A stretch of DNA of 64,000 nucleotides from a virus, in the IMG/VR virus record IMGVR_UViG_3300007517_000007, positions 7,285 through 71,284 of that record; one strand, written 5' to 3'. The position numbers and the translations under genes are program-made. The number at the start of each line of letters is the position of its first letter. Within the stretch, counting starts at the first letter, position 1. Shown piece by piece: positions 1,866 through 63,300 of the stretch. The notes under the pieces are model-generated. The model did not search any database and was not told where the DNA came from. It was given only the letters and a program-made list of their open reading frames with translations.

Positions 1866-1887
1866 GACGACGAACTCTAGCCGTCGG

Positions 1888-2232
1888 TCACCGTCCGCCG
1901 TTGAACCTCGGATAGTGATCAGCGAACGCCGAGACGATCGTCGCCCCTGCCAGGCCCAGAACGAGTGGACGGGTGACACGGAACCGCAGCGCGAGGACGC
2001 ATCCGACCGTGAACCACACACCGACGCAATGCGGGCAGGTGATCAGGTCGAGCGCCCACGCCTTTGCGTTCATGCGGGGCCCGTCGATGATGTCGGGCTC
2101 GCCGACGACGAACACCGGCTTCGCCAGCCAGTCCTCCAACGGTTCCCGGACCGGTTCGCCGATCTGCTCGTACATCCACGCCCGCACCAGGCGGGTACCG
2201 GCCAACCCGGCCACGATCACCGTCTGGATCAT
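1888..2232 (-). CDS. DUF1360-like membrane protein
   Basis: TRL..AW.YEQI..P.R and LITCPHCVGVW motifs, plus hydrophobic segments. Confidence 0.7.
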   Translation of the reverse strand: MIQTVIVAGLAGTRLVRAWMYEQIGEPVREPLEDWLAKPVFVVGEPDIIDGPRMNAKAWALDLITCPHCVGVWFTVGCVLALRFRVTRPLVLGLAGATIVSAFADHYPRFNGGR

Positions 2233-4707: not shown

Positions 4708-4934
4708 AGCTCGGCGTCGATGCCGGGGTCGATGTGTGCATGGCGGACCTCGTCGTGCTTCACCAGCATGATCGACTGGCCTTTCCACGAGATGGCCGAC
4801 ACACCGAAGTCGGAGTCGATGAACTCGTCGAAGAACAGGGCGAGACGTTCGGCCTTCGCGTCGCCGTGCTCGTCGACCAGTGCCTTACCATCGACCGGTC
4901 CCGGTTGGCTCGCCACGAACACGTCGACACTCAT
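4704..4934 (-). CDS. Hypothetical protein, leaderless
   Basis: ATG lies 7 nt after the TACAGT -10 of the promoter at 4942-4962; coupled to the helicase. Confidence 0.6.
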   Translation of the reverse strand: MSVDVFVASQPGPVDGKALVDEHGDAKAERLALFFDEFIDSDFGVSAISWKGQSIMLVKHDEVRHAHIDPGIDAEL

Positions 4935-5296
4935 GGAGCAGACTGTACGTCATCGTGCGACAAGGCGTTGCGGAAGTCGTCGATGCCGGTGCGCCACGCG
5001 ATGGCGTTCGTGCCGTTCGGGTCGTACGCAGACGGGAGTTCGACCGACAGCCCGTCGAGCGATCCGGCGATCACAGTCTCGAAGAACCGGCACAGCTTGT
5101 CGAGGTCGGACCAGTTGAGCGTGTGCAGCTCGCCGTCGGCACCGTACGTGTAGATGTGTTCCGGGTCGACGTTCGACGACCCGTCGTTCGGGTACGCGTC
5201 CAGGAACTCACGCACTCGTCGGGCGGCATCAGTAGTCATAGTCATCGTCCTCGTCGGTTTGGGAGCACTGGCCGTTGAGGCAAGCGCCGTCATCAT
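4931..5296 (-). CDS. Hypothetical protein (start uncertain, possibly ~5239)
   Basis: Fills the operon with overlaps on both sides. Confidence 0.5.
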   Translation of the reverse strand: MMTALASTASAPKPTRTMTMTTDAARRVREFLDAYPNDGSSNVDPEHIYTYGADGELHTLNWSDLDKLCRFFETVIAGSLDGLSVELPSAYDPNGTNAIAWRTGIDDFRNALSHDDVQSAP

Positions 5297-7760: not shown

Positions 7761-7798
7761 GATCCGACAAGGTAAGTGTACCACGGTGTGCGACGTTT
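7761..7798 (-). promoter_or_regulatory. Long early promoter cassette, copy 1
   Basis: CGTCGC-N9-TACACT...TGTCGGATC followed by an RBS; near-identical to 8563-8600 and 47962-47999. Confidence 0.85.
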
Positions 7799-8562: not shown

Positions 8563-8600
8563 GATCCGACATGGTAAGTGTACCACGGTGTGCGACGTTT
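8563..8600 (-). promoter_or_regulatory. Long early promoter cassette, copy 2
   Basis: 38-nt near-identical repeat of 7761-7798. Confidence 0.85.
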
Positions 8601-9322: not shown

Positions 9323-9357
9323 GATCCGACACCACCAGTGTATCACGGTGTGCGACA
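9323..9357 (-). promoter_or_regulatory. Long early promoter cassette, copy 3
   Basis: TGTCGC-N9-TACACT...TGTCGGATC. Confidence 0.8.
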
Positions 9358-11265: not shown

Positions 11266-11299
11266 GCGTCGGACCGTACCAGGTCATGCGACACCTAAG

Positions 11300-12445: not shown

Positions 12446-13987
12446 ATGGCAACACAGCACGATCTCGCTCAGCGGGCCTGGAAGGCCATGCCGCACACGA
12501 TGGGCCGACGCCTGTCGGAACGGACGTACAAGGCACCACAGCACGTCCAGTTCATCTCCTGGCTGCTGTACCTGTCCGCCACGTTGAAGAACCGGCGGCC
12601 GATCGTCCCACGGTTGGGGATCAGCTTGCCGCCTGGTTCGGGCAAGTCGGAGATCGTCGACTTCTACAACCCGATCTGGCTGCTGGAGCACGACGCGCGT
12701 CGCCGGATCATTCTGGCGTCCTACGCCGGGACGCTCGCTGAGGAGCAAGGCAAACGGGTCCGCAACCAGATCGAGATGGCACAGGACGTCCTGACGTGCC
12801 GGATCATGCAGGACTCGCGTGCCGCCGACCGGTGGCGGACGAGCAAGAACGGTGGCATGTGGACCGTCGGTGTCGGCGGTTCGATCACCGGTCGTCGCGC
12901 GTCGAACTTCCTCATAGACGACCCCCATAAGAACTTCGCTGAGGCCACGTCGGAGAAAAACCAGTTGGACGTGTGGAACTGGTACACGTCGACGGCGCGC
13001 ACCCGTCTGCTTCCCGGGTCGGCGTTGATGGTGATCCAGACCCGGTGGGCGGAGATGGATCTGATCGGCCGGTTGCGGGCCCAGGACGAAGCGAAGAACC
13101 AGTGGTTGTTCGTGAAGCTGCCTGCGATCGCTGAGGAGAACGAGTCGACAAGGTCGGTGCTCGGCGATTTCTGGTGCGACCGGTTGGAGTCGATGGGTGT
13201 GCCGTTGTTCGAGTGGCGGCGCGGGGAAGGCGAGGCGCTCTGGCCGGAGTTGGAGCCGGGTGTTCCCTGGTTCGACGTCGAGGAGTACGAACAGATCCGC
13301 CATGAGGTCGGCGAGATGGTGTGGGCTGGGCTGTACCAGCAACGCCCGGCACCGCTCGAAGGCGAGATGTTCAAGCGGTCCGATTGGGTTCGGGTGGACG
13401 CGATGCCCGCCGGGCCGCACACGATGGTGCGGCGATGGGACTTGGCGGCGTCGGTCAAGGGTGACTGGACCGCGACCTGCCTCATGGCGTACCACCACGC
13501 CACCCGCATGCCGTACATCCTGGAGATGAACCGGGACCGGCTGACTGCGCCGGAAGTGAAGGCCTTTGTTCGCGACACCGCCGAGTACGACCGGGAACGG
13601 TTCGGGGATGTCGTGCACATCCGGATCGAACGTGAACCGGGCTCGTCCGGCAAGAACGTCGAGTCGGACTACCTGCTCGAAGTGCTGCCCGATTTCAACT
13701 CGGTGAAGTTCCTGTCGTCGTCGGGTGACAAGACGGTCCGGGCGTACCCGTTGTCGTCGCAGCAAGGCTCCATGCACGTCCACATCTGCCGTCGCGACGT
13801 CGGCGGGACGTTCGAGACACCGAACTGGTGGCAATGGCTGATCGAGGAAGCAGCAGCGTTCCCGAACGCGAAGCATGACGACCTCGTCGACGTCGCCTCG
13901 TTGGCATGGGTGGACCTCGTCGAGCTGGTACCGCGGTCAGGACGCGCCCGGGCGAAGACGACCGCTCGACGCCAGCTCGGGTTCTAG
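12446..13987 (+). CDS. terL: Terminase large subunit
   Basis: PPGSGKS, LIDDPHK, TRWAEMDL, LYQQRP, WDLA, FPNAKHDDLVD. Confidence 0.95.
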   Translation: MATQHDLAQRAWKAMPHTMGRRLSERTYKAPQHVQFISWLLYLSATLKNRRPIVPRLGISLPPGSGKSEIVDFYNPIWLLEHDARRRIILASYAGTLAEEQGKRVRNQIEMAQDVLTCRIMQDSRAADRWRTSKNGGMWTVGVGGSITGRRASNFLIDDPHKNFAEATSEKNQLDVWNWYTSTARTRLLPGSALMVIQTRWAEMDLIGRLRAQDEAKNQWLFVKLPAIAEENESTRSVLGDFWCDRLESMGVPLFEWRRGEGEALWPELEPGVPWFDVEEYEQIRHEVGEMVWAGLYQQRPAPLEGEMFKRSDWVRVDAMPAGPHTMVRRWDLAASVKGDWTATCLMAYHHATRMPYILEMNRDRLTAPEVKAFVRDTAEYDRERFGDVVHIRIEREPGSSGKNVESDYLLEVLPDFNSVKFLSSSGDKTVRAYPLSSQQGSMHVHICRRDVGGTFETPNWWQWLIEEAAAFPNAKHDDLVDVASLAWVDLVELVPRSGRARAKTTARRQLGF

Positions 13988-14220
13988 TCGACGGACTTGA
14001 AAGCGCGTGGCGTGGTCACTGCGACGATGCCGGTGTCGGCGAACACGTCGTTGATGTCGTACTCCGGTGAGATGCCGTTCGCTTTCATCTCGGCGATCTC
14101 CACGACCAGCTTGTCGAACGTGGCCGTCTCGTGGGCGGTCATCCTGCCCGGCGGGCGTTTCCCAGCGATGGCTGCCCCGTAGAGCACCTTCATTCGATTG
14201 TCTCCGATTGGTTTCCTCAT
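13984..14220 (-). CDS. Nested in-frame leaderless 78-aa peptide (candidate antitoxin)
   Basis: Promoter TGTCGC-N9-TACAAT at 14228-14248; ATG exactly 7 nt downstream and in frame with the kinase. Confidence 0.6.
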   Translation of the reverse strand: MRKPIGDNRMKVLYGAAIAGKRPPGRMTAHETATFDKLVVEIAEMKANGISPEYDINDVFADTGIVAVTTPRAFKSVD

Positions 14221-15309
14221 ACTTGACATTGTACCACCTTGTGCGACACCTGCGGCGGCTGCGAGGGCTTCATCTTGCAGGAACGACAGCGTCAACGTGG
14301 TCGGGATCGAAGGGACGCGCCCGAGGTACTTTTCCCAGGCAGCCCGGTCGTGCACGACGAGGTTGCCTTGACCGTCAGCGACCGCCGTCAGTACGGGAGC
14401 CTGTTTCACCCCGTTCAACTTCGGGAGGGTGGTGACCAACTGTGACCGGGCGGTTGTCTGTGAGGCGACGTCGAGGAACGCAGCATTCGCGCCGACGTGC
14501 CCGTCGCGCAGCACGGATTCCGGGACGCCGCGACCCGTCGTTTTCTGGCGCTCCAGAGCGCCTGCGACGGCCTGATCTATCTCGGTGGTGACGTACGCAA
14601 CCTCGACTTCGTATCCTTCGCGTTGCAGGCGTTGGATCTCTTTGACGGCTTTCGGCCCGTCCTTGGACGTCTTGTCCATCAGGATGTTGGTCCCTCGTTC
14701 CAAGGCACCGGTGGTCAGCCGTTTCGCGAGGAACGAGGACTCCTCGTGAGCGATCGACGCCCACGCACCCGGATGGTCGTTGGCGAGCCCGTTGCCTTGT
14801 TTGCCTTCGTTTGACGGACCGGTGGTTTCCGGCAGGACCACCTTGAACTCGTCCGGGTTGATCGTCAGGGCACCTTCGGGTACGTCGATGAAACCCGCCT
14901 CGATTGCCGACGACTTGCCCGACGCTGCGCCGCCACCCATGACCACAGCTTTCTTGTTCGTCGACCGTGGGAACGGCTTGCCAGTTTTCTTGTCGGTCAT
15001 GGCCGTGGCGATGATGTCGTCATGGACTGCTTGACGGGCCGGGGTCAGCTTGCCGTCACTGCCGATGTGAGGCAGCAGCGTCGACTCGATCTCGTCGGTT
15101 TCTGGCACCGGGTCGAAACCGGCTTGGAGTTCCGCTCTCGACGGCAACCGTTCGTTGGCCCCCAGCGATCGAAGCGCCCCGAGGACCGAACCGGAGTCGC
15201 CGACGATCTCACCGCCGGACGAACCGCCGCCACCCCAGCGGCCGCCACCGGCCGCACCAGCAGGCACACGAGGCTGATTCGGGTCGTAACGGAACTGGCG
15301 GACACTCAT
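13984..15309 (-). CDS. Tagged zeta-toxin-family P-loop kinase with C-terminal extension
   Basis: N-terminal FRYDPNQPRVPAG..GGRW tag; MGGGAASGKSS, INPDEFK, HEESS, ILMDKT, TGRGVP. Confidence 0.85.
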   Translation of the reverse strand: MSVRQFRYDPNQPRVPAGAAGGGRWGGGGSSGGEIVGDSGSVLGALRSLGANERLPSRAELQAGFDPVPETDEIESTLLPHIGSDGKLTPARQAVHDDIIATAMTDKKTGKPFPRSTNKKAVVMGGGAASGKSSAIEAGFIDVPEGALTINPDEFKVVLPETTGPSNEGKQGNGLANDHPGAWASIAHEESSFLAKRLTTGALERGTNILMDKTSKDGPKAVKEIQRLQREGYEVEVAYVTTEIDQAVAGALERQKTTGRGVPESVLRDGHVGANAAFLDVASQTTARSQLVTTLPKLNGVKQAPVLTAVADGQGNLVVHDRAAWEKYLGRVPSIPTTLTLSFLQDEALAAAAGVAQGGTMSSMRKPIGDNRMKVLYGAAIAGKRPPGRMTAHETATFDKLVVEIAEMKANGISPEYDINDVFADTGIVAVTTPRAFKSVD

Positions 15310-16147: not shown

Positions 16148-16175
16148 CCGGTCAGTGTGTCACATGGTGCGACAC

Positions 16176-20595: not shown

Positions 20596-21320
20596 CACAG
20601 CTTCACCTTGAAGTTGCGGCCGGAGCCTTGCGTCCCGTTCGGGATCCACGACACACCGAACAGGACGTCCCCCTCGACGAGTTCGAGGTCCATCTCCGTC
20701 TCGACGCCTTCCTCAGTCCAGAACCACACACCGACCTGGTCGCGCTCGAACTCCCACGGCCAGCCCTTCGACTCGTCGACGATGGAGAACTCGACGTCCC
20801 CATCAGGAAGCGGCTTCGACACCATGCGTTGCAGATGCCCGGCCTTGACCCGGGCGTCGATCCACGCCCGCAGTTTCTTCATGTCGACTTGCGGTCGCAT
20901 CTCCACCGCGGAAGGGTGAACCTTGCTCAACCATTCAGCGACGTCAGCGTCGGTCTTGTCGATCGTGACGACAACCGGACGCGACGTGATGTCACCGTTC
21001 GGTACCCGGTGCCCGAGTTCACCGAACCCGAGGAACGCCTGCACCGCGAAGTCCTCGACGCTGGACCTCAGCCGGGAGATCCGGCGTTCGGTCGGCCCGA
21101 CCGCTTCGGCCCGACGCCGATTCAATCGGGACAGCTCAGCGTTGTGGAGAGCGTCGTAGGCGTCCACAGTGTGCTGCAACCGGTACCAACGGCCAAGGAT
21201 GCCGTTCACGCGCTCCAGAGACGTCAGCGGGGGCCGTGGGGGCCGATCCGGGGCAGGTTCCGGGGCGTCGGCGTCGGCATGCGGGGGGATCTCGTCGATC
21301 ATGTTCGGATGAGCGGTCAT
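20595..21320 (-). CDS. Mu Gam-like host-nuclease inhibitor
   Basis: N-terminal coiled coil; VPNGDITSR...VDMKKL; leaderless promoter at 21327-21347. Confidence 0.55.
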   Translation of the reverse strand: MTAHPNMIDEIPPHADADAPEPAPDRPPRPPLTSLERVNGILGRWYRLQHTVDAYDALHNAELSRLNRRRAEAVGPTERRISRLRSSVEDFAVQAFLGFGELGHRVPNGDITSRPVVVTIDKTDADVAEWLSKVHPSAVEMRPQVDMKKLRAWIDARVKAGHLQRMVSKPLPDGDVEFSIVDESKGWPWEFERDQVGVWFWTEEGVETEMDLELVEGDVLFGVSWIPNGTQGSGRNFKVKL

Positions 21321-21350
21321 CTTCACAGTGTCGCACACGGTCCGACAGTC

Positions 21351-35170: not shown

Positions 35171-35662
35171 CACGTTGGTTGCCACCGCCGCATCGTCTTC
35201 GTTCGAGGCCAGGACTTCACGTTCGAGCCATGACCGCAGCCCGGTCACCTCGCGTGGGTCACCTGCCAGCAACGCCGGTCGCAGCGTCGCTCGGTCGGCC
35301 TCGTTGACGAGGATCAGCATGATGTCGACGGCGGCCGCCCACGTTGCCTGCTCGAACGCCAGACGGCTCTCGATGAGAGCGTTGAACTGAATCGGGTAGT
35401 CGTCATCGGTCGGCGTCATTGTGTCGAGCTGCTCACGCATCTGGCGCGCTGAGTTCGCTGTCTGCACGAGCTGCGCGTGGCGGCCGGTCGTGTATCGCAG
35501 CGTGTTCTCGAACGAGATCGACGCAGCCGCCCGGGACTTGATGATCTCGGTCGAGGTGCCGTCGGCGGACACGGCGTCCCACTCGAACTCTTTACCGACG
35601 ACTGATGTGCCGAAACGGGCGAGAGCGTTCTGCGGGACGGGTGGGGGCACGAAATCGGTCAT
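35078..35662 (-). CDS. Tail assembly chaperone (G)
   Basis: Upstream of TMP; leaderless promoter at 35670-35690; DPT motif near the end. Confidence 0.75.
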   Translation of the reverse strand: MTDFVPPPVPQNALARFGTSVVGKEFEWDAVSADGTSTEIIKSRAAASISFENTLRYTTGRHAQLVQTANSARQMREQLDTMTPTDDDYPIQFNALIESRLAFEQATWAAAVDIMLILVNEADRATLRPALLAGDPREVTGLRSWLEREVLASNEDDAAVATNVDPTLPQSPPPSASNPDSGDDSGSEEPSSTG

Positions 35663-35691
35663 GGCGGCGACTGTACTAGACGGTGCGACAG

Positions 35692-45225: not shown

Positions 45226-47067
45226 TCAGGAACCGCTGGATACGCACGTACGCAGCGTGGCTGCGTAACCCGGGCGGGCACCCGACGGCACGACGGTCGA
45301 GTCGATGCGGATCGACTCACAGCCGAGCTGTGCGATACCGATCCACTCCTCCATGAACATCGCGAAGTCGTTGGTCTTGTTCAGGGCATGGTCCCGAACC
45401 AGGCCGACGTCGAGCGACCCGCCGTCCAACTTGACGAATGTGCCCGGCGCGAACATGTACGACGTCGCCCGGCAGGGGTAGTCGTTCAGTGCCGCACCGG
45501 CACCGGGCTGCGGTCGCGTCAACGGGTTCAGCCCAGCGACGGAGGTCGGGTCGTCGTAGTAGAACGTCACGTCGAGGTTTCGCGACGCAAACGCTGCGAC
45601 CACGAAGCTGTCCGGGACGTTCATGAACTCCAGGCCGGAGTCGCCGTCGTTGAGCAGGTCCGCCTTGACCACATCGACTGACCAGTCCGGCATCATCACC
45701 TGGAGGCGTGCACCGCGAGGCATGTGATGACGCTTGCGGTAGCCGTTCGCTGCGACCGTCAGGTCGTACATGAGCGAACGGGCCGCGCCGTACGAACCGA
45801 TGCCGACCGTGGCCGTGGAAGCGGCGTTGATCGCGTTGAGGTAGTAGCGCTGCTTGCGGAGCGTGAACTGCACGGCGACGTCTTCGAGGAAGTTCTCGAT
45901 CAGCTCCGGGAACGTCCGGTACTGGAGGTTGTCGAAGATCGTGCACTGCGTGACGGCTTCGACGAGCACCTCTGCGATGTCCGGGCACGTCACCCGCAGA
46001 CACGGCTTCTCAGCGCCCGGAGCGGTCGGGCTGATACCCGACGGTCCCCAGATGCCGACAGCACCCGCACCCTGAATCGTGCAGTTCGCCCGGATGAACC
46101 GGATGCCGCCACGCGGGGCCTGCACCGTCGGGATGGCGTTCTCGACGTCCTGGATCGGCTCGGCGAGCCGGAAGAAGTCGTACAACTGCGTCTGCGGGGT
46201 GCACTGTGCGCCGGATGCGACGAGACCGCCACGCTCGGTGAGCTGGTTGAACGACTTGAGGTTCTCGATCGGGTCGAGGCCCAGCGAGGGGAGTTCCTCG
46301 TTCCAGACCTTCGTGCCCGTCGCGATGGACATCTCGTCGCGGCTGCCCTGCGGGATGTTGCCGAAGCTCATCCGCTTCTTCCACATGGCCTGCGCGACCT
46401 CAGCCGGGCTGGAGAACTGCTGACCCGCACCGTCGGATGCTTGACGGGTCGACTCCATCGAGAACTGGTACTGGGCGGTGTCGATGTCGACCGGGATGTT
46501 CTTCGGCTTCGACGCAGGCGAGTTCGCAGCCAGTTCGGCCATGTTCGCGCCCCGGAAGCTGCGGCGAGGGCTGGTCGCCATCTCCTCCTCCTCATCGTCG
46601 TCCTTGGCGAACGGCTTTGGCTTCGGATCCTTCTTCTTGCCGTGGCCCTTCTTGAACAGGGCCAACTCGTCGGCGGATGCGTCGGCGTCCGGTGCGGTGT
46701 CGGTGTCGGTGTCGGCGTCGTCGCCGTCTTCGTCGGTGTCCTCATCGGCGTCTTCGTCGGTGTCGGTGTCGGCTTCGGCGACAGCGAAACGCGCCAGGCT
46801 GGAGGCCAGCTCCGCCTTGGAGTCGTTGCGGGCCGACATCTCGGCGACTACTTCGTCGTCGAGTTCGCTGAGCAGGTTCGCCTCAGCGACTTCCTCGGTC
46901 GACAGTTCGACGCCGTTGCTGATGCGAGCGGCGAGCTGACGGCCACGGGCGGTCAGCTTGTTCTGGATGGTCGACAGTTCGACGGCTGACAGGGTCGAGA
47001 GATCCTGTGGGACTTCCACGGTCTCGGTCTCGACGGTGTCGTCGGCGTTGTCTTCGGGCTTGGCCAC
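45226..47067 (-). CDS. Major capsid (hexamer) protein with N-terminal scaffold domain
   Basis: LVASGAQCTP..LYD...RGGIRF...KPC..V.CP...FPEL...LDVGLVRD; AAGGAG RBS before GTG 47067. Confidence 0.9.
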   Translation of the reverse strand: MAKPEDNADDTVETETVEVPQDLSTLSAVELSTIQNKLTARGRQLAARISNGVELSTEEVAEANLLSELDDEVVAEMSARNDSKAELASSLARFAVAEADTDTDEDADEDTDEDGDDADTDTDTAPDADASADELALFKKGHGKKKDPKPKPFAKDDDEEEEMATSPRRSFRGANMAELAANSPASKPKNIPVDIDTAQYQFSMESTRQASDGAGQQFSSPAEVAQAMWKKRMSFGNIPQGSRDEMSIATGTKVWNEELPSLGLDPIENLKSFNQLTERGGLVASGAQCTPQTQLYDFFRLAEPIQDVENAIPTVQAPRGGIRFIRANCTIQGAGAVGIWGPSGISPTAPGAEKPCLRVTCPDIAEVLVEAVTQCTIFDNLQYRTFPELIENFLEDVAVQFTLRKQRYYLNAINAASTATVGIGSYGAARSLMYDLTVAANGYRKRHHMPRGARLQVMMPDWSVDVVKADLLNDGDSGLEFMNVPDSFVVAAFASRNLDVTFYYDDPTSVAGLNPLTRPQPGAGAALNDYPCRATSYMFAPGTFVKLDGGSLDVGLVRDHALNKTNDFAMFMEEWIGIAQLGCESIRIDSTVVPSGARPGYAATLRTCVSSGS

Positions 47068-47304
47068 GGTGTAGCTCCTTGAGTGCAGGGTGTTCACGAA
47101 AAACCAGGGACGCGCCGGTGATCGGCACAGAATCATCGAGCGCCCTACGGGCGTGGATCGACGGCTTGCGGTTTGGCGCATCACCCCTGCGGAGCGAGCT
47201 ACGACGGGTCGGTCCTACGGGCCGGTGGTCCATCTGTTCGACATCATAGGCACCAGTCGACGGGCGGGTGTGGCATTTCCTGCGACAACGGGCCGGGAAC
47301 GCGA

Positions 47305-47961: not shown

Positions 47962-47999
47962 GATCCGACAAGGTAAGTGTACCACGGTGTGCGACGTTT
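47962..47999 (-). promoter_or_regulatory. Long early promoter cassette, copy 4
   Basis: Identical to 7761-7798. Confidence 0.85.
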
Positions 48000-48663: not shown

Positions 48664-48724
48664 GTTGTCCTTTCAGGGTTGATCCGACACTGTTAGTGTA
48701 CCACGGTGTGCGACAGATCCACAG

Positions 48725-49184: not shown

Positions 49185-49259
49185 GATCCGACACGGTCAT
49201 TGTACCACCATGTGCGACATTCCGTACGAGGTGTGTTGTGTCGTACGACATGGAAGGAT
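49185..49259. promoter_or_regulatory. Divergent promoter pair
   Basis: Minus strand TGTCGC-N9-TACAAT (49199-49219); plus strand TGTCGT-N9-AAGGAT (49239-49259), 7 nt before ATG 49267. Confidence 0.7.
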
Positions 49260-53941: not shown

Positions 53942-54232
53942 TCAGTCCGGGTGGTGGTGCACGAAGTCACGGTCGACGTGGCGGGTCCAGCCCGACAACA
54001 CACGCGGGTACGTGCACCACGCCAACACGGCCTCCGGGATCGACCCGTAACACCAGTGCTCCACGTTCGCGCTCTCCGACGTCATCACCGCCAACCGCAC
54101 CGTCGTCAACTGCGGGCGCAGCACCAGCCACTCCGGGCCGACAAGATGACGGGCAGCGAGGTCATGGTACGGGTCGTCGAAATCGACGTTCATCCACGCC
54201 TGCATCCCGTGCGGGAACATCTCGTTGATCAC
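53942..54232 (-). CDS. Hypothetical protein
   Basis: HWCY...A...W...GWTRH. Confidence 0.5.
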   Translation of the reverse strand: MINEMFPHGMQAWMNVDFDDPYHDLAARHLVGPEWLVLRPQLTTVRLAVMTSESANVEHWCYGSIPEAVLAWCTYPRVLSGWTRHVDRDFVHHHPD

Positions 54233-55022
54233 ACTTCACCCCCGATGTGGTTCGGGTCGTACAGCTCGATGCCGATGCCTTTGCGTCCGAGATCGTTCGC
54301 CACGCGCGGGGTCGTCATCGAACCGGCGAACACGTCGAGCACGACGTCGCCGCGTTCTGTCGTCGCGAGGATCGCCCGTTCGGGCAGCGCAGCAGGGAAC
54401 GGCGCGTAATGCCGGACCGCTTTGGCTCCGCGGTGCGGCGCTATGTGCCACACGTCGCCTTTCTCGACGAGCCGTTTCGGGTTGAACCGGTGCCTCGTGT
54501 GCTTCGCCAGCATGAAGATGAACTCGTGAGCGAACAGGGGCCGGTTGGCGTGCTTCAAGCTCTCCGGTTTCACGTTCGGGGACTTGTCCCACACGATCAC
54601 CGACCGCACCAGCCAGCCACGGGCCTGCGCCATCTGAGCGAACAGGAACGGCACCATCATCGCCTGCCCGGTGGCGAGGTCGGCGTAGTCCGGTTTGCCG
54701 TAGTGCGGGATCCAGTGCTTCGAGCCTTTCGTCGCGCCGGTCTTCGCGTGGTCACCGCCAGCGCCGCCTGACCCGGAGCGCTTGTCGCCGATGACGTACC
54801 ACACGGTGGCGTCGTCGTCGGTCACCCGATGAAGCTCGTCGAGCACTGCGCCATCTCGTCGAGGTGATGGTCGATGCTCCCCCACCCGATCTCGTGTTCC
54901 GGGTCGTCGCCGTAGCGGCGTTGCCCGAAGTACGGCGGGGACGTGAACACCATCTGCACCGAGCTGGTCGCCAACGTCGGCAGGATCAGACGGCTGTCAC
55001 CGAACAGTGCCTTGTACGTCAC
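54229..55022 (-). pseudogene. N4-C/N6-A DNA methyltransferase split by a frameshift near 54850
   Basis: TSPPY in 54822-55022; HYAPFP and VLDVFAGSMTT in 54229-54885, another frame. Confidence 0.8.
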
Positions 55023-55219
55023 TCTGAGACGGAGTCCGGGTCGACGAACCGGCGGGGCTCCTCAGACTCATCGGTGTCGTCGTCTTCGTTGCCTTCGGTG
55101 GCTTCGTCGTCGACAGCTTCGTCTTTCTCGTCGTCGGTCATGCCCTCCCACTGGGCCGGGATCTCAGCGGTCGCGCCGTCGTGAATCGGGTCGGTCGGTT
55201 CTGTCGGTGTGTCACTCAT
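55019..55219 (-). CDS. Small acidic protein ending in PRRFVDP
   Basis: Leaderless promoter at 55226-55246; coupled to the methylase. Confidence 0.55.
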   Translation of the reverse strand: MSDTPTEPTDPIHDGATAEIPAQWEGMTDDEKDEAVDDEATEGNEDDDTDESEEPRRFVDPDSVSE

Positions 55220-55246
55220 CCAAACATTGTCTCACACGGGGCGACA

Positions 55247-55555
55247 ATGTGGCAGGCTTGCGAGGTGGGCATCCCGTTGGACATCGAAGGCATCGCCCAA
55301 TGGAAGACCGCGTCGCTGCGGGTTGCTGACCAGTTCCTCGTCGGCGGGGAGGTCCACCCGTTCACGACGTTCCAACTCGATCAGATCCTCGCCGCAGCAC
55401 GCGACGCCGGACTATCCGAGCGCGAGCAAGGGGCGTTCCTGGTGTCCGTCATCGCGTCGGACATGGAGAACCGTGGATGGGCGGGCGTGCCGCGATCGAA
55501 GCAGTTGACGCTCGCGACAGCGTTCGCGATGCGGATGATCCACCCCGACGGTTAG
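55247..55555 (+). CDS. Hypothetical protein (start uncertain)
   Basis: Lone plus-strand ORF downstream of a quasi-palindromic promoter. Confidence 0.5.
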   Translation: MWQACEVGIPLDIEGIAQWKTASLRVADQFLVGGEVHPFTTFQLDQILAAARDAGLSEREQGAFLVSVIASDMENRGWAGVPRSKQLTLATAFAMRMIHPDG

Positions 55556-55689
55556 ACGGTGGGGTCGACGAACCGGCGGGGCTTGGCGGCGGGCTTCGCC
55601 TTGGCCACGGGTGCAGCGTCGGGCGCGCCTTCGAGTTGCTTCGCCTGCCGCTTCCATTCGCCCGGCCCCTTGAACTTGGTCACGATCAC
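55552..55689 (-). CDS. Nested in-frame leaderless 45-aa peptide
   Basis: TGTCGG-N9-TTCAAT at 55697-55717; GTG exactly 7 nt downstream and in frame. Confidence 0.5.
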   Translation of the reverse strand: MIVTKFKGPGEWKRQAKQLEGAPDAAPVAKAKPAAKPRRFVDPTV

Positions 55690-56415
55690 AGAGCCCATTG
55701 AACCATACGGTCCGACAGAAAGTTCTTCCCGGTCGGCGACGTGCGGCGGCCAGTAGCCGTTGCCGTCAGCGAAGTGGTAGGCCCCACCGATCGCGCGTGT
55801 GGCTGCGCCGATCGTGTGGACGTCGGCGAGGTTGTCGACGACAGTGACGGGGTCGAAGTCGATCCGGTCGAGGTCGTCGTCGTGGAACACACCGAGGTAG
55901 TGGTTCTGGCGTTCGAGGACCGTCCGGAACTTCGCCTTGGCCTGGTCCATCGCTGCGTCGAACTGCTCGCGGGAGGCGTCCTCCGGGACGCTCACCGTGT
56001 CGACGCCGTTGTCCTTCACCGTGAGCGCGTACTTGTCTGCGCCGTCGGGAAGGAACTCGCCGGTGCGGGCGTCGATCGTGGCCCCACCCCACGATTTCTG
56101 TGCTTCGACGAAAGCGCGTTGTCGGATCTCGTCCCAGTTCTCGTCGAGTCCGATCGGCTGCGAGTTGGCGGCGAACTCGTCGAGCTGAGCCCGGCCGATA
56201 CGGGCGAGTCGTTGGAACTCGTCTGCTGACACCGGTCGGCTGTCCCCGCGCGCTTCGCTCGCGTTGATCGGCTCGAACTGTGCGCCTCCCCCACGCCGAC
56301 CGTGCGACTGCTGATCGTGCTGGCCCTCAAGATGGAACGTGGCTGTGGTGTCGTCAAGCGGGCCCCTGCGGACCAGCACCCAGCCAAGGTCGGCACTGAT
56401 TCTGGGCACGGTCAC
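55552..56415 (-). CDS. Tagged cargo protein with an unknown domain
   Basis: FHLEGQHDQQSHG tag; WGGATID...YLGVFHD...IDFDP domain. Confidence 0.75.
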   Translation of the reverse strand: MTVPRISADLGWVLVRRGPLDDTTATFHLEGQHDQQSHGRRGGGAQFEPINASEARGDSRPVSADEFQRLARIGRAQLDEFAANSQPIGLDENWDEIRQRAFVEAQKSWGGATIDARTGEFLPDGADKYALTVKDNGVDTVSVPEDASREQFDAAMDQAKAKFRTVLERQNHYLGVFHDDDLDRIDFDPVTVVDNLADVHTIGAATRAIGGAYHFADGNGYWPPHVADREELSVGPYGSMGSVIVTKFKGPGEWKRQAKQLEGAPDAAPVAKAKPAAKPRRFVDPTV

Positions 56416-58307
56416 TGGATCACCTCGGTCTCGATAGCTCTGACCGTCACCCCACCGGCGACATAGTCAGTGACGTTCACGACTCGGTAACGCGTTTCGG
56501 GTGGCATCACCCATTCTCTTTCGTCGATGCCGTCGTCGACCATCGAACCCTGAGCCATGATCGGAAGGGCTTTCGCTCCGTTCGTTTTCACCGACATGAC
56601 CACTCGACGCGTGTCGGGATCCCCGACGATCGGGTTGCGTGCGAAGTCTTGAACGATTCGTTTCTCTTGCGTCGTGGACATAAACCCGGGGCTCTCGAAC
56701 TCGTCACCGACACGCATCTGGAACTCCGGCCATCCAGAGGCTGACGCCGCCTGACCGCGATACACGTACTCGGGGGCCGTCTGACCGTACTTGTCGATTC
56801 CTTCGGTCAGTGCCTGCACCCTCCCCGGCAAACTGTCGGCAGCTCTCGCCTGACGTTCGGCCTCGATCCGCTGATTGAACGGGCCCGCTTCCTCCGGTGT
56901 CAGTGCCCGGTGGACCACGTCCTTCCGACGAAAATCGACCGGGATGAGCGTCCCGTCAGCTTCGACCATCACCCACGTCGCCGGGCCGTGAGCGGCAGAG
57001 AGCGGTTGAAGCGGCGGGATCTCCCCGGTCCGCAGATAGGTGTTCATCTGGTGCGAGATGCCGCCCCGGTACGCGTGGTGGGCGTCAGTGAACTCGGGAT
57101 CCTCGGATGACGCTGCGTACAGCTTAGACGTGGCGGTCTCATGCCGTCCAGGCCAAGCGCCGGACGGGAGGCTCTGGGAAGCAGCAAAGACAAGCTCGCC
57201 GTCGTCGATGTCACCCAAGTCGACAATGGTGGCGCTACCAGACCCGGCCCCTCCACGCCGACCGTGCGACTGCTGATCGTGTTGGCCCTGGAGATGGAAC
57301 ACCTCGACCGACGCCGCCATCTCGTCGCCGTCTTCCTCCCAGTCGACCGGGCCGTCACGCCGACCGGCGGACTTCCTTCGCCAATACTCCTCAGCGGCCT
57401 CCGGCGACAACCACTTCGGGTCGATGCCACCTCGACTGTCGATCTCGTTGATCGTCTCCCACCGACCGACGGAGTTGCGAGGCTGATTCGGATCGAACCG
57501 GAACACGGCGATTCCCAGCTCGTCGCGAAGGCTCGGGTAACGCCGGTACAGCTCCTCCGCACCGGCACCGAACCCGTCGCTGTCCTGCCCCCACACCGAC
57601 TCCCAATGGCCCCCAACTTTGACCTGGACGTCGATGATGTCGACGGGGGTGCGGCCGTCGACACAGACCTCCATTTCGCCTCCGACCATGCTTCCCTGAC
57701 GGTTCCGGTCGACCGAGTTGCCGTCAGCGTCGACGAACGCTGTGCGGCCGTCGGGGGTGTCGACCTCTTGGACGAGGATGTCGGACTGACGGGCCCTGGC
57801 CGTGACCTTCACGACCAGATTCATGCCCCTCCCGGCGTTCACCGACTCGGCGACGCCTTCGCGTGTGGTCCATGACTGGCCGAGCCCGCTCAGCGACTCG
57901 ATGCGCTGATGGCCCTCGAAGCCGAGTAGCTGGTCGGCGATGATCGGCCCGAGCTGGAGGTGCTGGTTGAACTCGTCGGGCTCCGCCCCCGAGTACATCT
58001 GAGTGTCGATGCGCCGTTTCAGGTCGTCAGACACGTTGATCGCAAGGCCGCGGTGCATGACCGGACCATCGAACTTCGACTGGTTGACACCCCGCCGGGC
58101 GGCCTTCGCTACGCGTTCGGTCTCCGCTGCCGCTGCACCCTTGTACTGGCCTCCACCGGATCCGCCGCCCCAGCGGCCACCGTCCGACGAACCAGCGGGA
58201 ACACGAGGCTGATTCTCGTCGAACGCCAGCTCCGCCGTGGCGGTCAGGGTGTCGCGCATCCAGTCGGGGCCGCCCACCATCGGGTCGTCGATGTTGATGA
58301 TCATCAC
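56412..58307 (-). CDS. Tagged polyvalent protein with two ADP-ribosyltransferase domains
   Basis: HRGL/QSWTT/EMEV and MNTYLR/VYRG/FMSTT/EREW (VIP2-like); three tags. Confidence 0.8.
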   Translation of the reverse strand: MMIINIDDPMVGGPDWMRDTLTATAELAFDENQPRVPAGSSDGGRWGGGSGGGQYKGAAAAETERVAKAARRGVNQSKFDGPVMHRGLAINVSDDLKRRIDTQMYSGAEPDEFNQHLQLGPIIADQLLGFEGHQRIESLSGLGQSWTTREGVAESVNAGRGMNLVVKVTARARQSDILVQEVDTPDGRTAFVDADGNSVDRNRQGSMVGGEMEVCVDGRTPVDIIDVQVKVGGHWESVWGQDSDGFGAGAEELYRRYPSLRDELGIAVFRFDPNQPRNSVGRWETINEIDSRGGIDPKWLSPEAAEEYWRRKSAGRRDGPVDWEEDGDEMAASVEVFHLQGQHDQQSHGRRGGAGSGSATIVDLGDIDDGELVFAASQSLPSGAWPGRHETATSKLYAASSEDPEFTDAHHAYRGGISHQMNTYLRTGEIPPLQPLSAAHGPATWVMVEADGTLIPVDFRRKDVVHRALTPEEAGPFNQRIEAERQARAADSLPGRVQALTEGIDKYGQTAPEYVYRGQAASASGWPEFQMRVGDEFESPGFMSTTQEKRIVQDFARNPIVGDPDTRRVVMSVKTNGAKALPIMAQGSMVDDGIDEREWVMPPETRYRVVNVTDYVAGGVTVRAIETEVIQ

Positions 58308-58308
58308 G

Positions 58309-60363
58309 TCATGCCTCCCTGTTGACCGGGGTGAGTTCCTCGATGTCGATCGGGTTGCCGAGCAGGATGACCTCGCGCTCGCGCAGCGAACCCCACCCGG
58401 TGGTCGATGCCATCCCGACGATCTGGTTGATCGGGACTTCGGCGCGCATCATCCACCCACCGCCCGACGAGTGCTCCCCGCCGAACTGGCGTGCGATGCC
58501 GATGTCAGTCGTCCATGACGACAACGGGTTGCCCTGCGTCACGGTCGCGCCGGTCATGTTGGTCGCTGAGTGACCGGAGTCCTTCACACCTCGGTACACG
58601 GTGATCGTCGACCGGTTGTCGCGTCGCACACCGTTCAGGATCGTGTCCTCGATCGCGAACTGGTCAGCCTCGATGATGTGGTTGATCGTGGTCGGCATCA
58701 GGTTCCGGATGCCTTTGGCCTTGTCCATCGCCCCGCCCGGGTAGTACCCGTTCAGTGCCGCCGTTGCTGCGGACAGGTTTTTCTGTTCAGCGATCGCGAG
58801 ATGGAACGCCACCATGCCAGGGGTGACTGCCGACTGCTGCCATTGCGAGTTACGCCAATCGACTGCGCCGTGCGCGACCGTGACCCCGGTCGCCTCCTCG
58901 ACGATCGCCGACATGGCTGCCGGGTCGCCGCCTGCCGTGAACGCTTCGACCGCTACCTGGACGCGTTCGGTCACCTCCGACTTCGGGTAGTCGACTCGCC
59001 AGGCTTTAGCCGCCGTCGAAAGTTGCATCGCGACACCGAGCGGGAGCCGCCCCACCACTTCGCCACGCAGACCGAAGTCGGCGATGTCGTTCTCGATGTC
59101 CTGCGCGATCATGATCCGCTGCAACGAGTCCATCTCGGCCAGGGTCTGTGCGTTGAGTTCGTCGGCGATCTCCTGCCGGGTTTCCTCACCCATGTACAGC
59201 ACGACCGTCGCTGCGCCGTCCTGCTTGAACTTCCCGGCGTTCGATTCGTTCCCGGCGTACTGGTCACTCAACGACTCGACGTCGTCGTACGGGAACGGGG
59301 TGCCGTCCTCGCGTGTTGCCGGGTTCTGCTCGAACCCGCCCGGGCCGCCACCACCACCCCAGCGGCCGCCGTCCGACGAACCAGCAGGGACACGAGGCTG
59401 ATCCGGGTTGTAACGCAGCGCCTGCGTGATAGGGGACCGAGATCCGGGATCGTCGCGAAGAATCGAGAGAGATGCGGAGCGGGTCGGGTCGAGGAACTTG
59501 ACGCCGTCCCACGACGACGAGCTGAGAAACACCTGCTTGAACCGTGGAGAGATCGCGAGGAGATCAGCGCCGTACACCGGTTCGATCTCGTTGCGGTTGT
59601 CGTCCCATTGGGCCATGACCGCCTCGAACTCACGGTACTTGGCGTTGTCGGAGCCGAGCACCCCGTTGCGGACCTCGAACCGGGCGTACGCCTGCCATTC
59701 CTCGATCGTCGAGTCGGTGTAAGTCCCATACCCCGCCGCCGCCCACGAGTACCGGCCAACATCGACGGCGTTCAGCTCGAACGTGAACACACCGAGTTCG
59801 TCGGCGAGCCCCTGCTCTGTGCGCTCGGCGAACTCGGTGCCGATCCCCTGGTTCTGAAACTCCGGTTCGATAGTCAGGTACTCGTTCTTCACGATGCCGT
59901 TCGAGTACATCGTGCGTTGGAAGTCCCCTACGGGATCTCCGTTCGGGGCGTCGATTGTGCCAGCAATGGAAATGTCGGTCGTGCCTGGATTCGTCAACGA
60001 AGCGAACTCCTCGATCTCCGCCCGCACCGTGTACTTCTCGCCGTTGGCGGTGATCTGGAAGTCGTAGATGTCCGACAACGCCGACAGCCGATCCTCAGCA
60101 GAGATTTCGGCGACGAACGGGCGTCGAGCAGCGCCCCCACCGGCGTGCGTCTGCTGATCGTGCTGGCCTCGGAGGTGGAACACGGTGAGCCCGTCGACGG
60201 TGAACACCTCCTCGTCGTCGTCGTCCTCGTCGTTTTCGGGGTCACCGGCTGCTTCGGCGTCGGACTGCTCCGACATGAACACCGGGGCCAGCTTCACGAG
60301 ACGGCCGAGCGTGTCGATCATGGCTTGCTCGTCTTCGCGAGTCGTCGTGGCGTTGACGGTCAC
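58309..60363 (-). CDS. Tagged polyvalent protein: GNAT-like plus ADP-ribosyltransferase
   Basis: FQNQGIGT; VYRGV/LSSWTT/EREV; two tags. Confidence 0.8.
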   Translation of the reverse strand: MTVNATTTREDEQAMIDTLGRLVKLAPVFMSEQSDAEAAGDPENDEDDDDEEVFTVDGLTVFHLRGQHDQQTHAGGGAARRPFVAEISAEDRLSALSDIYDFQITANGEKYTVRAEIEEFASLTNPGTTDISIAGTIDAPNGDPVGDFQRTMYSNGIVKNEYLTIEPEFQNQGIGTEFAERTEQGLADELGVFTFELNAVDVGRYSWAAAGYGTYTDSTIEEWQAYARFEVRNGVLGSDNAKYREFEAVMAQWDDNRNEIEPVYGADLLAISPRFKQVFLSSSSWDGVKFLDPTRSASLSILRDDPGSRSPITQALRYNPDQPRVPAGSSDGGRWGGGGGPGGFEQNPATREDGTPFPYDDVESLSDQYAGNESNAGKFKQDGAATVVLYMGEETRQEIADELNAQTLAEMDSLQRIMIAQDIENDIADFGLRGEVVGRLPLGVAMQLSTAAKAWRVDYPKSEVTERVQVAVEAFTAGGDPAAMSAIVEEATGVTVAHGAVDWRNSQWQQSAVTPGMVAFHLAIAEQKNLSAATAALNGYYPGGAMDKAKGIRNLMPTTINHIIEADQFAIEDTILNGVRRDNRSTITVYRGVKDSGHSATNMTGATVTQGNPLSSWTTDIGIARQFGGEHSSGGGWMMRAEVPINQIVGMASTTGWGSLREREVILLGNPIDIEELTPVNREA

Positions 60364-63300
60364 GCCTCGACCTCCCAGTCGTTGAACACCGCCGGGTTGA
60401 TGTACGACTTCAACGACGTCGACGGTGTGTTGCCGAGAATATCCGACACGGCGACACCGACCGTCTTGCGTGCCCGTTCCAGCGCCGCCTGCGACGGGTA
60501 CCGCTTCGGGAGCGCCGCCACCCTCGACATCGCGATCGTGTTGGCCTTGTACGTGCGGATGTCATGGTTCTTGAAGTCGGAACCGGTGACCCGGTCGATG
60601 TAGTCGTCGGTGCTCGCAGCGTTCGTGTCGAACAAGCGGTCGCTGCCGGATTTGCCCGACTTCCAGGCGTTCATCGTCGACGCGAGCGCCGGGTCGTTCA
60701 CAGTGATGTCGACGGGCTTCGATCCTTTGCCCTCGAACCGGATCCGGACTTCGTCGCCGGACACAGTGACGTGTCGGGCTTCGAGCGACGACGCGCCGTA
60801 GGTGGCCTTGCCTGATCGGGTACCTCGCGCTGCGGTGCCGCCACCGGAGTCGATGCGGATCCCGGTGGCGCGCATCACTTGAACTGCTGCGGCGTCCGGG
60901 TTCGTCGTAGCGTCTTCGGCGATCGCCTTGTCGAGCTTCGGCATCGCCCGATGCAGATCGGCTTGGCGTTCGTACTTGGCTTCGGCCTGCCGTTTCGAGT
61001 GGGCCTCCGAGTAAGTCGACTGGACCTGACCGTTCGGGGCGACACCGCGAGCGACGAGCCCGTTTCTGTTGCCGTCGGCCGAGTTGGCGACCATCACGTA
61101 CCGCATGCCGGGTGCGACACCGAGCGCTTTGCGTTCCTCTGCGGTCGCCTCGTGCAGCCCCGAGTTGTCGGACCCGCCGTGCACGGCGCGCATCATCGCT
61201 TCCTCATGGGTCTCACCGCGTCGCGTCGTGTACCGGGAGCGTTGCGCCTTCGAGAGAGTGTCGACTTCGGCTTGGATCGTCGCCGGATCCTTGTTCGACC
61301 CGCCGGTCCCGAACGGTGGCGGAGAGCAAGACGAGTCGTCGCAGCCCACGCTGAGCTGGTGCATCTCCGACGACAGGTGCGACATCGAAGCGTTCGAGAA
61401 CGACACCCGGCGGTCGCCGATCGTGCGGGCGGCGACACCGTTGGCGGCGTTGTAGGTGCGGGCCTGGTCGAGTAGCTCGTCGATCGGTAGGTCGATACGG
61501 ACTACGTCGACCGGTGACGCTGCCGGGTCGCCGTCGAGTTCCATGATCGCAGCGGCCGCCCACCGGTGATGCCCGTCCAGGATGCGGCCGTCCGACGACA
61601 CCATGATGCGATGCGCCGACCCGAACGAACCGTCCTGGATCCGTTCGATCATGCGGGCCACTGCGACCCCGTCGAGTTCGTTCTGTGTGGCCGACAGCGT
61701 CGACGCGTTCACGGTGTCATCGACGAACCCGACGCCCTGCTCGGCGAGTTGGTCACGGAACCCGTCGATGTGCACCCTCGGGATCTGCGGCATGTCCGCC
61801 CGGCCAATCGTGTTGCCACGCACCTCGGAGAACAGGTTGGGATACCCGTCGACGTCGACCGCGGTCAGGTCAACGGTGCCTTCGGTGATGTCAGCGAACG
61901 TCGCGACGATCCCAGCGACCTCCGACGGTGATGTCCGGATCGTTTCACCGGTCGCGATGCGGTCGGCGACACCCGACCCGATCGAGCCTCCACCGATCGA
62001 CGTCCACCGGCCGTCGTCGTCGCGAGCCTGCCCCGGGTCGAACCGGAACACGGTGATCCCGGCGGCGAGTTCGACGTCCTTCACGCCTTGGCGTTCGGTG
62101 AGTTCGTCGACGACGGTCTGGAACGCGTCTTTCTTCACGTACGCGCCCTCACGCCGGTAGTTGGCGTCGTCGACCTGCACGAACCGGTCGAGCTTCAAGT
62201 ACGACTCGCGACCGTTCTTGTCCCAGTCCCCGGACCCGACCGGCAGCCGATCGTCCGACGACCGACCAGGCTTCGAGGTGAGCTGCACACCGACCAGGTT
62301 CTTGCCGTCGGCGGTGCGTCCGATGATGAGCACCGGGCGGTCCTTCGACTGCGACGCGTCTTCCTCGAACGGGATCTTCGCCCACACGATCTCACCCGGG
62401 TCGGCCTTGCCGTCAGGGTGTCGCGGCCGGTACGCGATCCGCACATCGGAGAACGGCACGTCAGGGAGCACACCCGCAGGACGCCCACGACGGGCTGGAC
62501 GGGCTTTGCCGGGTGGTGGAGGGATCGGACGACCATCACGGCCGCCGCCACCCCAGCGGCCGCCTCCGGACGAACCAGCGGGCACACGAGGCTGATTCTC
62601 GTCGAACCTGAACACGGTGACGCCCTCCACGGCGAGGCCTTGCCGTTCGAGTGAGTCGATCCATGCTTTGCCGTCGTCGGTGCGAGCAATGGAGTGGGCG
62701 ATGTTCGGGATCTGGTCCTTGCCGAACTTCCACATCTCGGTGGCGATGTCCTTGCCCCGCCATTTCGGTTCGACGATGATGGACTGGACCTCGCGCACCT
62801 CGACGCCGTCCCTGGTCACCTTCGTCGTGCGGATCGCCGCAAGAGGTCGCGACCTGTTCGCTTCCGCTGTGGCACGCCAGAACTCCGGGGAGTGCACCTC
62901 GACAGCCTCGATGCTGCCGTACCCGACGAAGTCGAGCCGGACGGACTTGTCGCCGACAGCGATGATCTTCGACGTGGCGGGCACCGGCATGGAGTCGACC
63001 CCGGCATCCCAGTCGGCCCGGTCGATGCTTCCCCAATTCTTGTGCTGGATCGTGTTGAACCCGCCCTCGGACCAACCTGATTCGAGCGGGCGGGCCGTGC
63101 CTCCACCGGCGTGCGTCTGCTGGTCGTGCTGGCCTTGGAGGTGGAACGTCTCGACGGCCAGGTTCGCTGTTCGGGGGTCGCCGACGCGACGCACACCGTC
63201 CCACGACGGGCCATTGAGGAACACCGTCTTGAATCGGGGATCCACGGCAAGCAGGTCGGCCGGGTAGACCGAGCCGATGTCGTCAGACCACGAACGGAAC

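Follow-up and report, generated by a model that had tools for sequence, protein, structure and literature searches.

How does a phage keep the toxic modules of its cargo harmless in the cell that produces them? This question is raised by one gene of an uncultured phage, the open reading frame (ORF) at positions 55552..56415 (minus strand) of the window, by which we mean the whole 64,000-nucleotide (nt) stretch that was analyzed, corresponding to bases 7285-71284 of the linear, 71,284-nt IMG/VR virus record IMGVR_UViG_3300007517_000007. The ORF, of 287 amino acids (aa) and a stop codon, is the last of four tagged cargo ORFs. We read its product as a fusion of a tag, a domain and a partner peptide, encoded by a gene that carries the promoter grammar of the phage at the joint between domain and peptide, and to this reading, taken as a whole, we give about an even chance of being right.

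The GTG start codon of the ORF overlaps the stop codon of the upstream 631-aa ORF (GTGA, 56412-56415), and the G+C content at its third codon positions (GC3) is 0.82. Along the minus strand, codons 27-39 (56299..56337) encode the N-terminal tag FHLEGQHDQQSHG, a motif also found in the three upstream ORFs, and codons 45-228 (55732..56283) encode the core domain, which ends in ...GNGYWPPHVAD. This domain is followed by a variable linker that holds the GC3 minimum of the gene (codons 229-244, 55684..55731), by the conserved tail motif TKFKGPGEWKRQAKQLE, which is modeled as a beta-bridge and a helix (codons 246-262, 55630..55680), and finally by a basic C-terminus rich in alanine, proline and lysine (codons 263-287, 55555..55629) that ends in PRRFVDPTV.

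The evidence that the tail is an entity of its own comes from relatives of the gene. Taking loci by protein similarity, we collected 173 loci that reduced to 104 unique core sites, and searched the 1.5 kb downstream of each core with a hidden Markov model of the tail. The tail was fused to the core at 49 of the 104 loci, formed an adjacent separate ORF with its own start at 21, and was found in an ORF 500-1400 nt downstream at another 9; 2 loci ran into the end of a contig. At L057 and L096, both counted among the 21 adjacent cases, the frame of the core stays open and the tail is encoded in another frame. The separate tail ORFs are 37-60 aa long (95-126 aa in one clade, with the motif at the N-terminus), and their ATG or GTG start codon is either preceded by a GGAGG-like site or overlaps the stop codon of the core (ATGA). 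A protein search with the tail alone also returned the stand-alone 42-aa protein P0240, which is 85% identical to the tail in the window. When aligned, the family shows a conserved core up to GNGYWPPHV, a variable linker, and then h-x-[FWY]-x-G-P-G-x-W-x-x-x-A-x-x-x-Q. On a quick maximum-likelihood tree of 99 cores, whose root is not known, the fused and split states change at least seven times; the clade of the window gene, with SH-aLRT 98 and six rows that are all fused, has a split locus as its sister, and the other five of this 12-row group are split as well. We conclude that the upstream domain has in the tail a genuine partner that can be separated from it. The preliminary description of this DNA had considered the domain an effector and the tail its inhibitor; the partnership stood up to this analysis, given the 21 adjacent and 9 downstream tails among 104 loci, the identity to P0240 and the split kin on the tree, and the two roles stay putative. 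The small coupled partner gene that is typical of toxin-immunity systems is thus found in relatives (21 of 104 loci), and the parts are fused in the window.

Possible starts of the tail are also seen in fused genes. Most stand-alone tail ORFs start at the position of M240 (MSERIVTHF in L015, MSDKTKTHF... in another, MGSVIVTKF in the window), the ATG of which (55696..55698) lies 8 residues ahead of F248; no Shine-Dalgarno sequence is found ahead of M240 in the window gene. A methionine 3-16 residues ahead of the motif is present in 24 of 42 other fused loci, against 23% expected, and is preceded by a Shine-Dalgarno 4-mer in 19 of these 24 cases, against 71 of 447 control methionines. Considering these counts, which ignore kinship among the loci, many fused genes may still start translation internally. 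As a separate observation, the linker of L024, L035, L036, L111, L114 and others reads A-E-G-A-x-M after PPHV and is spelt ...GGAAGGAGCGGCGATG, a strong Shine-Dalgarno sequence with an ATG at the place where split relatives start their small ORF, making these relatives candidates for internal translation starts.

The preliminary description had suggested structure prediction of the domain together with its tail, and two single-chain AlphaFold2 (AF2) models place the tail at a predicted local distance difference test (pLDDT) score of 85-97. The model of the 287-aa protein, built with 90 relatives, has a mean pLDDT of 84.0 and a predicted template modeling (pTM) score of 0.77. In this model the core exceeds 90, the N-terminal 40 residues are disordered, and the tail, at 85-90, forms a beta-bridge at residues 246-247 and a helix at 251-261. 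For a relative that belongs to a different clade and is 50% identical, the model repeats this arrangement: residue 289 is in a bridge, residues 293-303 form a helix, and the block has a pLDDT of 97. Since a bridge needs a partner strand, which is available from the core only, the models place the tail on the domain, and we infer that it would dock there through its short strand and helix. A comparison of tail-bearing with tail-less cores, aimed at interface residues, yielded three weak columns (L122, P135 and F163) and no usable signal.

The domain itself belongs to no family in the collections that we searched. At E<=0.001, the 287-aa protein has 344 representative relatives overall; relatives of similar length number 155, and the core (aa 45-228) recurs as a module, internal or terminal, in relatives of 500-3618 aa. 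Because residues 26-275 align to the last module of one such relative, the 2745-aa metagenomic protein P0121, the gene can be regarded as a split-off terminal module. Profile and family searches gave no match for the core in Pfam (including its LPD families), PHROG, NCBIfam or PADLOC, and a sequence profile search of the PDB gave 0 hits. Structure searches were equally empty: Foldseek found 0 matches in the PDB at E<=0.001 (best E 0.1), VIA-align reached a best Z of 3.7 among 48,161 chains with none at 5 or above, and the ESM Atlas returned two viral clusters at 0.80, under the level of a lead. In BFVD, 8 matches were found at E<=0.001, all to uncharacterized phage proteins. With blastn and tblastn, the gene has no match among 50,697 GenBank phage records, and a search of genome contigs gave one locus, in a metagenome-assembled genome of the Streptosporangiaceae. 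The polar residues E66, T113, D115, T118, D179, D186, D188 and Y213 are universally conserved in the core, with the aspartates on a beta-hairpin (FHDDD..RIDFD). The domain may be a metal-dependent enzyme; more generally, an enzymatic or inhibitory activity of the module is putative.

The second half of the finding concerns the DNA at the joint. Read on the minus strand, 55717-55687 is TGTCGGACCGTATGGTTCAATGGGCTCTGTG and encodes S-V-G-P-Y-G-S-M-G-S-V; the in-frame string TGTCGG-N9-TTCAAT-N7-GTG and the 45-aa basic peptide behind it, both pointed out in the preliminary description, are present exactly. In other words, the linker contains TGTCGGAC (55710..55717), which matches 7 of the 8 positions of the upstream promoter element TGTCGCAC, then an extended -10-like element, TGG-TTCAAT (55697..55705), and then, 7 nt past the hexamer, the in-frame GTG of codon V243 (55687..55689), the proposed leaderless start, which opens the 45-aa peptide VIVTKFKGPGEWKRQAKQLEGAPDAAPVAKAKPAAKPRRFVDPTV with 10 K/R and 4 D/E residues. 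Several codons of the linker are rare within their families: CTT and TCT (5% each), TAT (7.6%), GGA (8.6%) and TCA (8.8%).

The standard against which this string should be judged is the phage's own promoter grammar. The record holds 22 sites of a promoter or operator family, TGTCGCAC-N7-nACnnT, against 1.9 expected, counting sites with at least 7/8 matches in the upstream element and at least 4/6 in the hexamer; a search of the whole record with two identical 21-mers, in which up to 6 mismatches were allowed, found 21 sites where 200 Markov shuffles predict 1.7. Six minus-strand sites are leadered (7775-7795, 8577-8597, 9337-9357, 47976-47996, 48695-48715 and 49199-49219): after 4 nt they continue with TGTCGGATC and a ribosome-binding site. 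Another six, also on the minus strand, are leaderless (4942-4962, 11273-11293, 16154-16174, 21327-21347, 35670-35690 and 55226-55246), with an ATG 6-7 nt past the -10 (at 4934, 11265, 16147, 21320, 35662 and 55219, respectively) as the start of a high-GC3 ORF, 66-444 aa long. Four of these ATGs are the first start of their ORF; the ATG at 21320 lies 6 codons in, and that at 35662 is preceded by two earlier in-frame starts. The site at 21327-21347 precedes a Gam-like gene with the same upstream-element variant, TGTCGGAC, as the joint site. The 8-nt element TGTCGCAC is not a -35, being too near the -10, and may bind a phage factor; the TGTCGG that had been taken for a -35 is rather part of this phage-specific element.

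By analogy, the leaderless class of the phage fits actinobacterial practice. For Mycobacterium tuberculosis, passages of Cortes et al. (2013; PMC3898074) report that a TANNNT -10 without a -35 dominates and that TGN increases its activity, that a quarter of genes are leaderless and GTG works as well as ATG, and that leaderless transcripts predominate among toxin-antitoxin pairs. The phage shares with these promoters the -10 without a -35, the boosting TGN and a transcript that would begin at the start codon. It differs in that its sites add the 8-nt TGTCGCAC, 7 nt upstream of the -10, which is not in the host consensus given in those passages, and in that the site in ORF 55552-56415 reads TTCAAT rather than TANNNT. 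A classical sigma-70 promoter is not found: a scan of 54800-56600 gave 0 promoter-like sites, and the joint hexamers are 9 nt apart rather than separated by the 16-18-nt spacer of a sigma-70/SigA promoter, with TTCAAT again departing from the TANNNT consensus of the M. tuberculosis study (PMC3898074, in the part drawn on here). The nested promoter proposed in the preliminary description therefore survives as a fit to the phage's own grammar beyond chance, and not as a classical sigma-70 promoter, given the 9-nt spacing and the 0 scan sites; as it also remarked, the -10 departs from consensus, with T at position 2 against A at the other 21 sites.

Measured against this grammar, the joint site agrees with the upstream element at 7/8 positions and with TACAAT at 5/6; TG still precedes the -10, and an in-frame start codon (GTG) stands at N7, as the leaderless class requires. 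The record has 14 sites at least this good, whereas 300 Markov shuffles predict 0.16 and 15% of them contained one or more; with [AG]TG at N6-7 the count is 5 against 0.02 (2% of the shuffles). When the 287-aa protein was recoded synonymously with the phage's codon usage, only 3 of 20,000 recodings contained such a site, and the protein sequence thus does not force the motif. In addition, the lowest 11-codon GC3 window of the gene (3/11, codons 229-240; mean 0.816) lies on the joint site (corrected P 0.035), and no such trough was seen in two control ORFs (631 and 684 aa). In L099, the single close relative with DNA (71% aa identity), TGTCGT-N9-TTCAAT-N7-ATG occurs in the same frame. The pattern as given in the preliminary description had 7 matches at up to 2 mismatches against 3.9 expected, and the pattern TGTCG-N7-TGN-TWCAATG-N6-RTG occurred in viral contigs at 13 unrelated loci, all of 33-51% GC. 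Judged from the nucleotide sequence, the joint carries the phage's promoter grammar beyond chance.

The same arrangement is repeated in an unrelated cargo gene of the phage, as the preliminary description had noticed. The zeta-toxin-domain gene (13984-15309, minus) opens with an NQPRVPAG..GRWGGG tag and contains, at 14228-14248, a perfect copy of the phage's strongest promoter, followed by N7 and an in-frame ATG at 14220, from which a C-terminal peptide of 78 aa could be read; another ATG in the same frame stands after GGAGA. Here too the lowest GC3 window of the gene (2/11, codons 353-363) lies on the internal site (corrected P 0.045). The gene next after zeta is the convergent terminase gene (12446-13987, plus), so that the internal promoter has no same-strand gene to serve downstream. 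Going by sequence, an antidote gene may be nested here, or the site may act as a promoter for antisense RNA; the zeta C-terminus has no match in GenBank phages.

Putting these results together, we believe that the ORF would be the last module in this phage's row of tagged cargo (polyvalent-protein modules in the head-gene region), translated through coupling to the preceding ORF. Its product would be a fusion of three parts: the tag FHLEGQHDQQSHG, a domain of some 185 aa that is undescribed and has a cluster of conserved acidic residues, and a peptide of about 45-50 aa that in sister phages appears as a separate, translationally coupled small gene and that would dock through its F-x-G-P-G-x-W-x-x-x-A-x-x-x-Q strand and helix. 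Since rare codons at the joint reproduce the leaderless grammar, the joint is likely to be promoter DNA, in use or recently so. Considering that its -10 is without the invariant adenine, the peptide is expected mainly within the 287-aa protein; that a weak internal transcript would also yield free peptide is conceivable, and we put this somewhat short of an even chance.

A number of points weigh against this reading. Packaging in the capsid is inferred from gene position only, and the thresholds for the joint site were set after the site had been seen. Position 2 of the joint hexamer is T, against A at all 21 remaining sites of the 22-site family, its start codon is GTG where all six genuine leaderless genes have ATG, and at 6 mismatches to the 21-mer consensus, 1.7 such sites are expected per genome. 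The site in L099 is identical at 22 of 33 nt (third positions 54%), not above the gene-wide 75%, so that shared ancestry would suffice as an explanation. When contigs of four DNA runs were compared with 55450-56450, three that are about 95% identical to the gene had no change at 55679-55743 among those listed, a comparison without power and hence uninformative, because about 1.5 changes are expected per 31 nt and most changes are shared by the contigs. As regards the partner, no tail is found within 1.5 kb at 23 of the 104 loci, and 72 of 238 proteins end directly after PPHV, so that the domain does not need the tail to exist; with so many relatives lacking it, the tail should be seen as an accessory partner and not as part of the fold. 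The split sister loci are translationally coupled with no promoter between the genes, and former promoter DNA at the joint was therefore not inherited from them. Finally, the locus counts and the methionine and Shine-Dalgarno counts ignore kinship among loci.

The alternative that survives best is that the promoter is active at GTG 55689 and that the free 45-aa peptide neutralizes the upstream effector in the producing cell, with the zeta gene built likewise. All of the promoter-grammar evidence at the joint would count for it, as would the perfect promoter, N7 and in-frame ATG of the zeta gene ahead of a convergent gene, and six genuine phage genes start 6-7 nt past such a -10. Split relatives have the usual toxin-immunity layout of an effector with a small coupled ORF, MuF toxin genes mostly have small ORFs downstream (PMC5576092, in the part drawn on here), and M. 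tuberculosis toxin-antitoxin pairs are mainly leaderless, with GTG in use and TGN as a booster (PMC3898074, in the same passages as above). Against this, the -10 has T at position 2 versus A at the 21 other sites, the dominant mycobacterial -10 in those passages of PMC3898074 is TANNNT, the start is GTG versus ATG at the six genuine leaderless starts, and the core matches no recognizable toxin family. We regard an active nested antidote as rather unlikely.

Somewhat less probable again is that the peptide serves as an address or adaptor, tying the domain to the capsid interior, the portal or the packaged DNA for loading or ejection. The sequence past the tail helix would suit such a role, being variable and strongly charged (basic in the window and in P0240, acidic in most other clades), as would the C-terminal PRRFVDP, which is common to a neighboring acidic 66-aa ORF and recurs as a basic-F-x-[DA]-P ending in close relatives, and the partner of some clades, a helical protein of 95-126 aa with the motif at its N-terminus. 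Yet the modules already carry N-terminal tags, and the reversal of charge between clades argues against one common target.

A bolder idea is that the cargo enzymes would carry their antidote twice, fused in cis and free from a leaderless promoter in the codons of the joint, a rule that would hold for the unrelated zeta gene and this domain at the least. Judged on sequence patterns, we hold this to be improbable; if true, the producing cell would be protected and the effector, once packaged and perhaps trimmed, would reach the next host armed, and the double-antidote rule would have arisen repeatedly by the fusion of effector and small-partner gene pairs.

Less probable still, and in our view very unlikely, is a role of the site in RNA synthesis alone, restarting minus-strand transcription past the inserted convergent gene towards the 66-aa ORF and the methylase gene beyond it, or running antisense to a convergent 102-aa ORF (in the zeta case, to the terminase gene). 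In its favor, each of the two genes is the last one ahead of a convergent gene and carries its nested site close to the 3' end, and an exact direct repeat of 22 nt brackets the convergent cassette; however, the 66-aa ORF is already served by a leaderless promoter at 55226-55246, this reading would not explain why an in-frame start follows after exactly 7 nt in both genes, and the -10 defect counts here too. A chance resemblance, with the tail an optional C-terminal extension and the motif without meaning at the DNA level, can draw on the 6 mismatches (1.7 such sites expected per genome), the lack of a sigma-70-type promoter in the scan, a linker that is not conserved across the family and the close fused relatives L100-L105, which have no Met or Val start in it, but it is just as doubtful given the 0.16 sites (0.02 with a start codon) expected under the class-specific grammar, the 3 in 20,000 recodings, and GC3 minima that fall on the site both here and in zeta and have no counterpart in the two control ORFs.

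The record as a whole (CheckV completeness 84, G+C 64%) encodes most of its window genes on the minus strand, including the portal (window 3-2021), the major head protein (45226-47184), a head-tail adaptor, a major tail protein and a 1648-aa tape measure. At the right end of the window, four successive minus-strand ORFs of at least 1212 aa (truncated by the contig end), 684, 631 and 287 aa abut or overlap one another. The first of these has a PemK/MazF-like part (E 1.7e-7) and a topoisomerase IB-like part (E 2.3e-11), and the 684-aa ORF has a weak match to DRAT, under the Pfam cut-off, making it weakly ADP-ribosyltransferase (ART)-like. All four contain the tag FHLxGQHDQQ[ST]H, and the four copies of its longer form, FHLxGQHDQQ[ST]H[AG], at 56299-56337, 57264-57296, 60145-60177 and 63111-63143, mark the starts of modules; an NQPR..G.W motif is present in three of the four and in the zeta ORF. 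P0121 has 10 FHLQGQHDQQxH tags. The strings 'HDQxxH' and 'GQHDQ' were not found in the literature searched, and 'HDQ' is absent from the main text of PMC5512222, the part of that source drawn on here.

Other features were observed around the gene. A convergent 102-aa ORF (55247-55555, plus) overlaps its stop codon; this ORF has 8 homologs only and belongs to no family, is syntenic in L099 (711-1010, minus), where an acidic small ORF also comes after its counterpart, and is another candidate partner or immunity gene of the module. Neither the partner proteins nor the convergent ORF have a Pfam match over the cut-off. The 22-nt exact direct repeat (55038-55059 and 55562-55583) encodes PRRFVDP at the C-termini of ORF 55552-56415 and of the 66-aa acidic ORF (55019-55219) and flanks a cassette of about 500 nt with the convergent gene and a palindromic promoter region; the pair could have been left by an insertion or a recombination event, or could represent a docking motif that the two C-termini share. 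Further on, an N6/N4 DNA methylase is encoded by two overlapping minus-strand ORFs in different frames (54229-54885 and 54822-55022), with PF01555 on the larger and phrog_67 on both, which may reflect a frameshift, an assembly error or a broken gene. The contigs about 95% identical to the gene (55450-56338; runs X2, X4 and X5) come from freshwater-sediment, biofilm and microbial-mat metagenomes of three studies, and one contig lacks 6 nt, in frame, within the basic C-terminus (55603-55609).

Among known systems, the closest are polyvalent proteins, which Iyer et al. (2017; PMC5512222) describe, in the passages drawn on here, as unrelated enzyme modules strung together with head genes and thought to be packaged and injected. 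Like these, the present core recurs in proteins of up to 3618 aa, and its neighbors are MazF-like, topoisomerase IB-like and weakly ART-like; unlike these, the string of this phage is broken into four coupled ORFs, with one module in this ORF. Polyvalent proteins hold at least two unrelated effector domains, and this ORF has one domain with a tag and a tail; at the same time, its core recurs in multi-domain proteins and head genes are encoded on the same record, and it is best called a stand-alone module of a polyvalent array. A small partner peptide that is either fused or split is not described in those passages of PMC5512222, the supplements of which might list the domain. For MuF polymorphic toxins, the part of Jamet et al. 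(2017; PMC5576092) drawn on here proposes a small downstream ORF as immunity gene. The likeness lies in a head-region gene with a small partner ORF, toxicity of the present domain being putative; the differences are that the small ORF of this phage is fused in frame and that no MuF domain was detected in ORF 55552-56415. In EzeT, a zeta toxin is covalently joined to its antitoxin, as stated in the part of PMC4826407 drawn on here, and both parts thus share one polypeptide, a likeness that bears on the zeta gene of the phage and, by analogy, on this ORF. Unlike in EzeT, the domain of ORF 55552-56415 is not a zeta toxin. The antitoxin part of EzeT is reportedly N-terminal, with no nested promoter involved. 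Lambda C/Nu3 is a case of a co-terminal C-terminal protein made from an internal in-frame start in a head-assembly gene. Nested genes of this type use internal translation starts on one mRNA, unlike the internal leaderless promoter that is proposed here from sequence.

In a new host cell, polyvalent cargo proteins are thought to act before any other phage protein. To these, the present locus adds an undescribed and widespread module, with 344 representative proteins and none in 50,697 GenBank phage records. It further adds a small partner peptide, for which the tree requires seven or more changes between the fused and the separate form, and a phage-specific leaderless grammar inside two cargo genes, at the joint of domain and peptide. 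If the internal sites fire, the proportion of partner to effector would be set by a compact device; should they be silent, the locus would still document a gene fusion at a promoter and provide a clean two-protein system.

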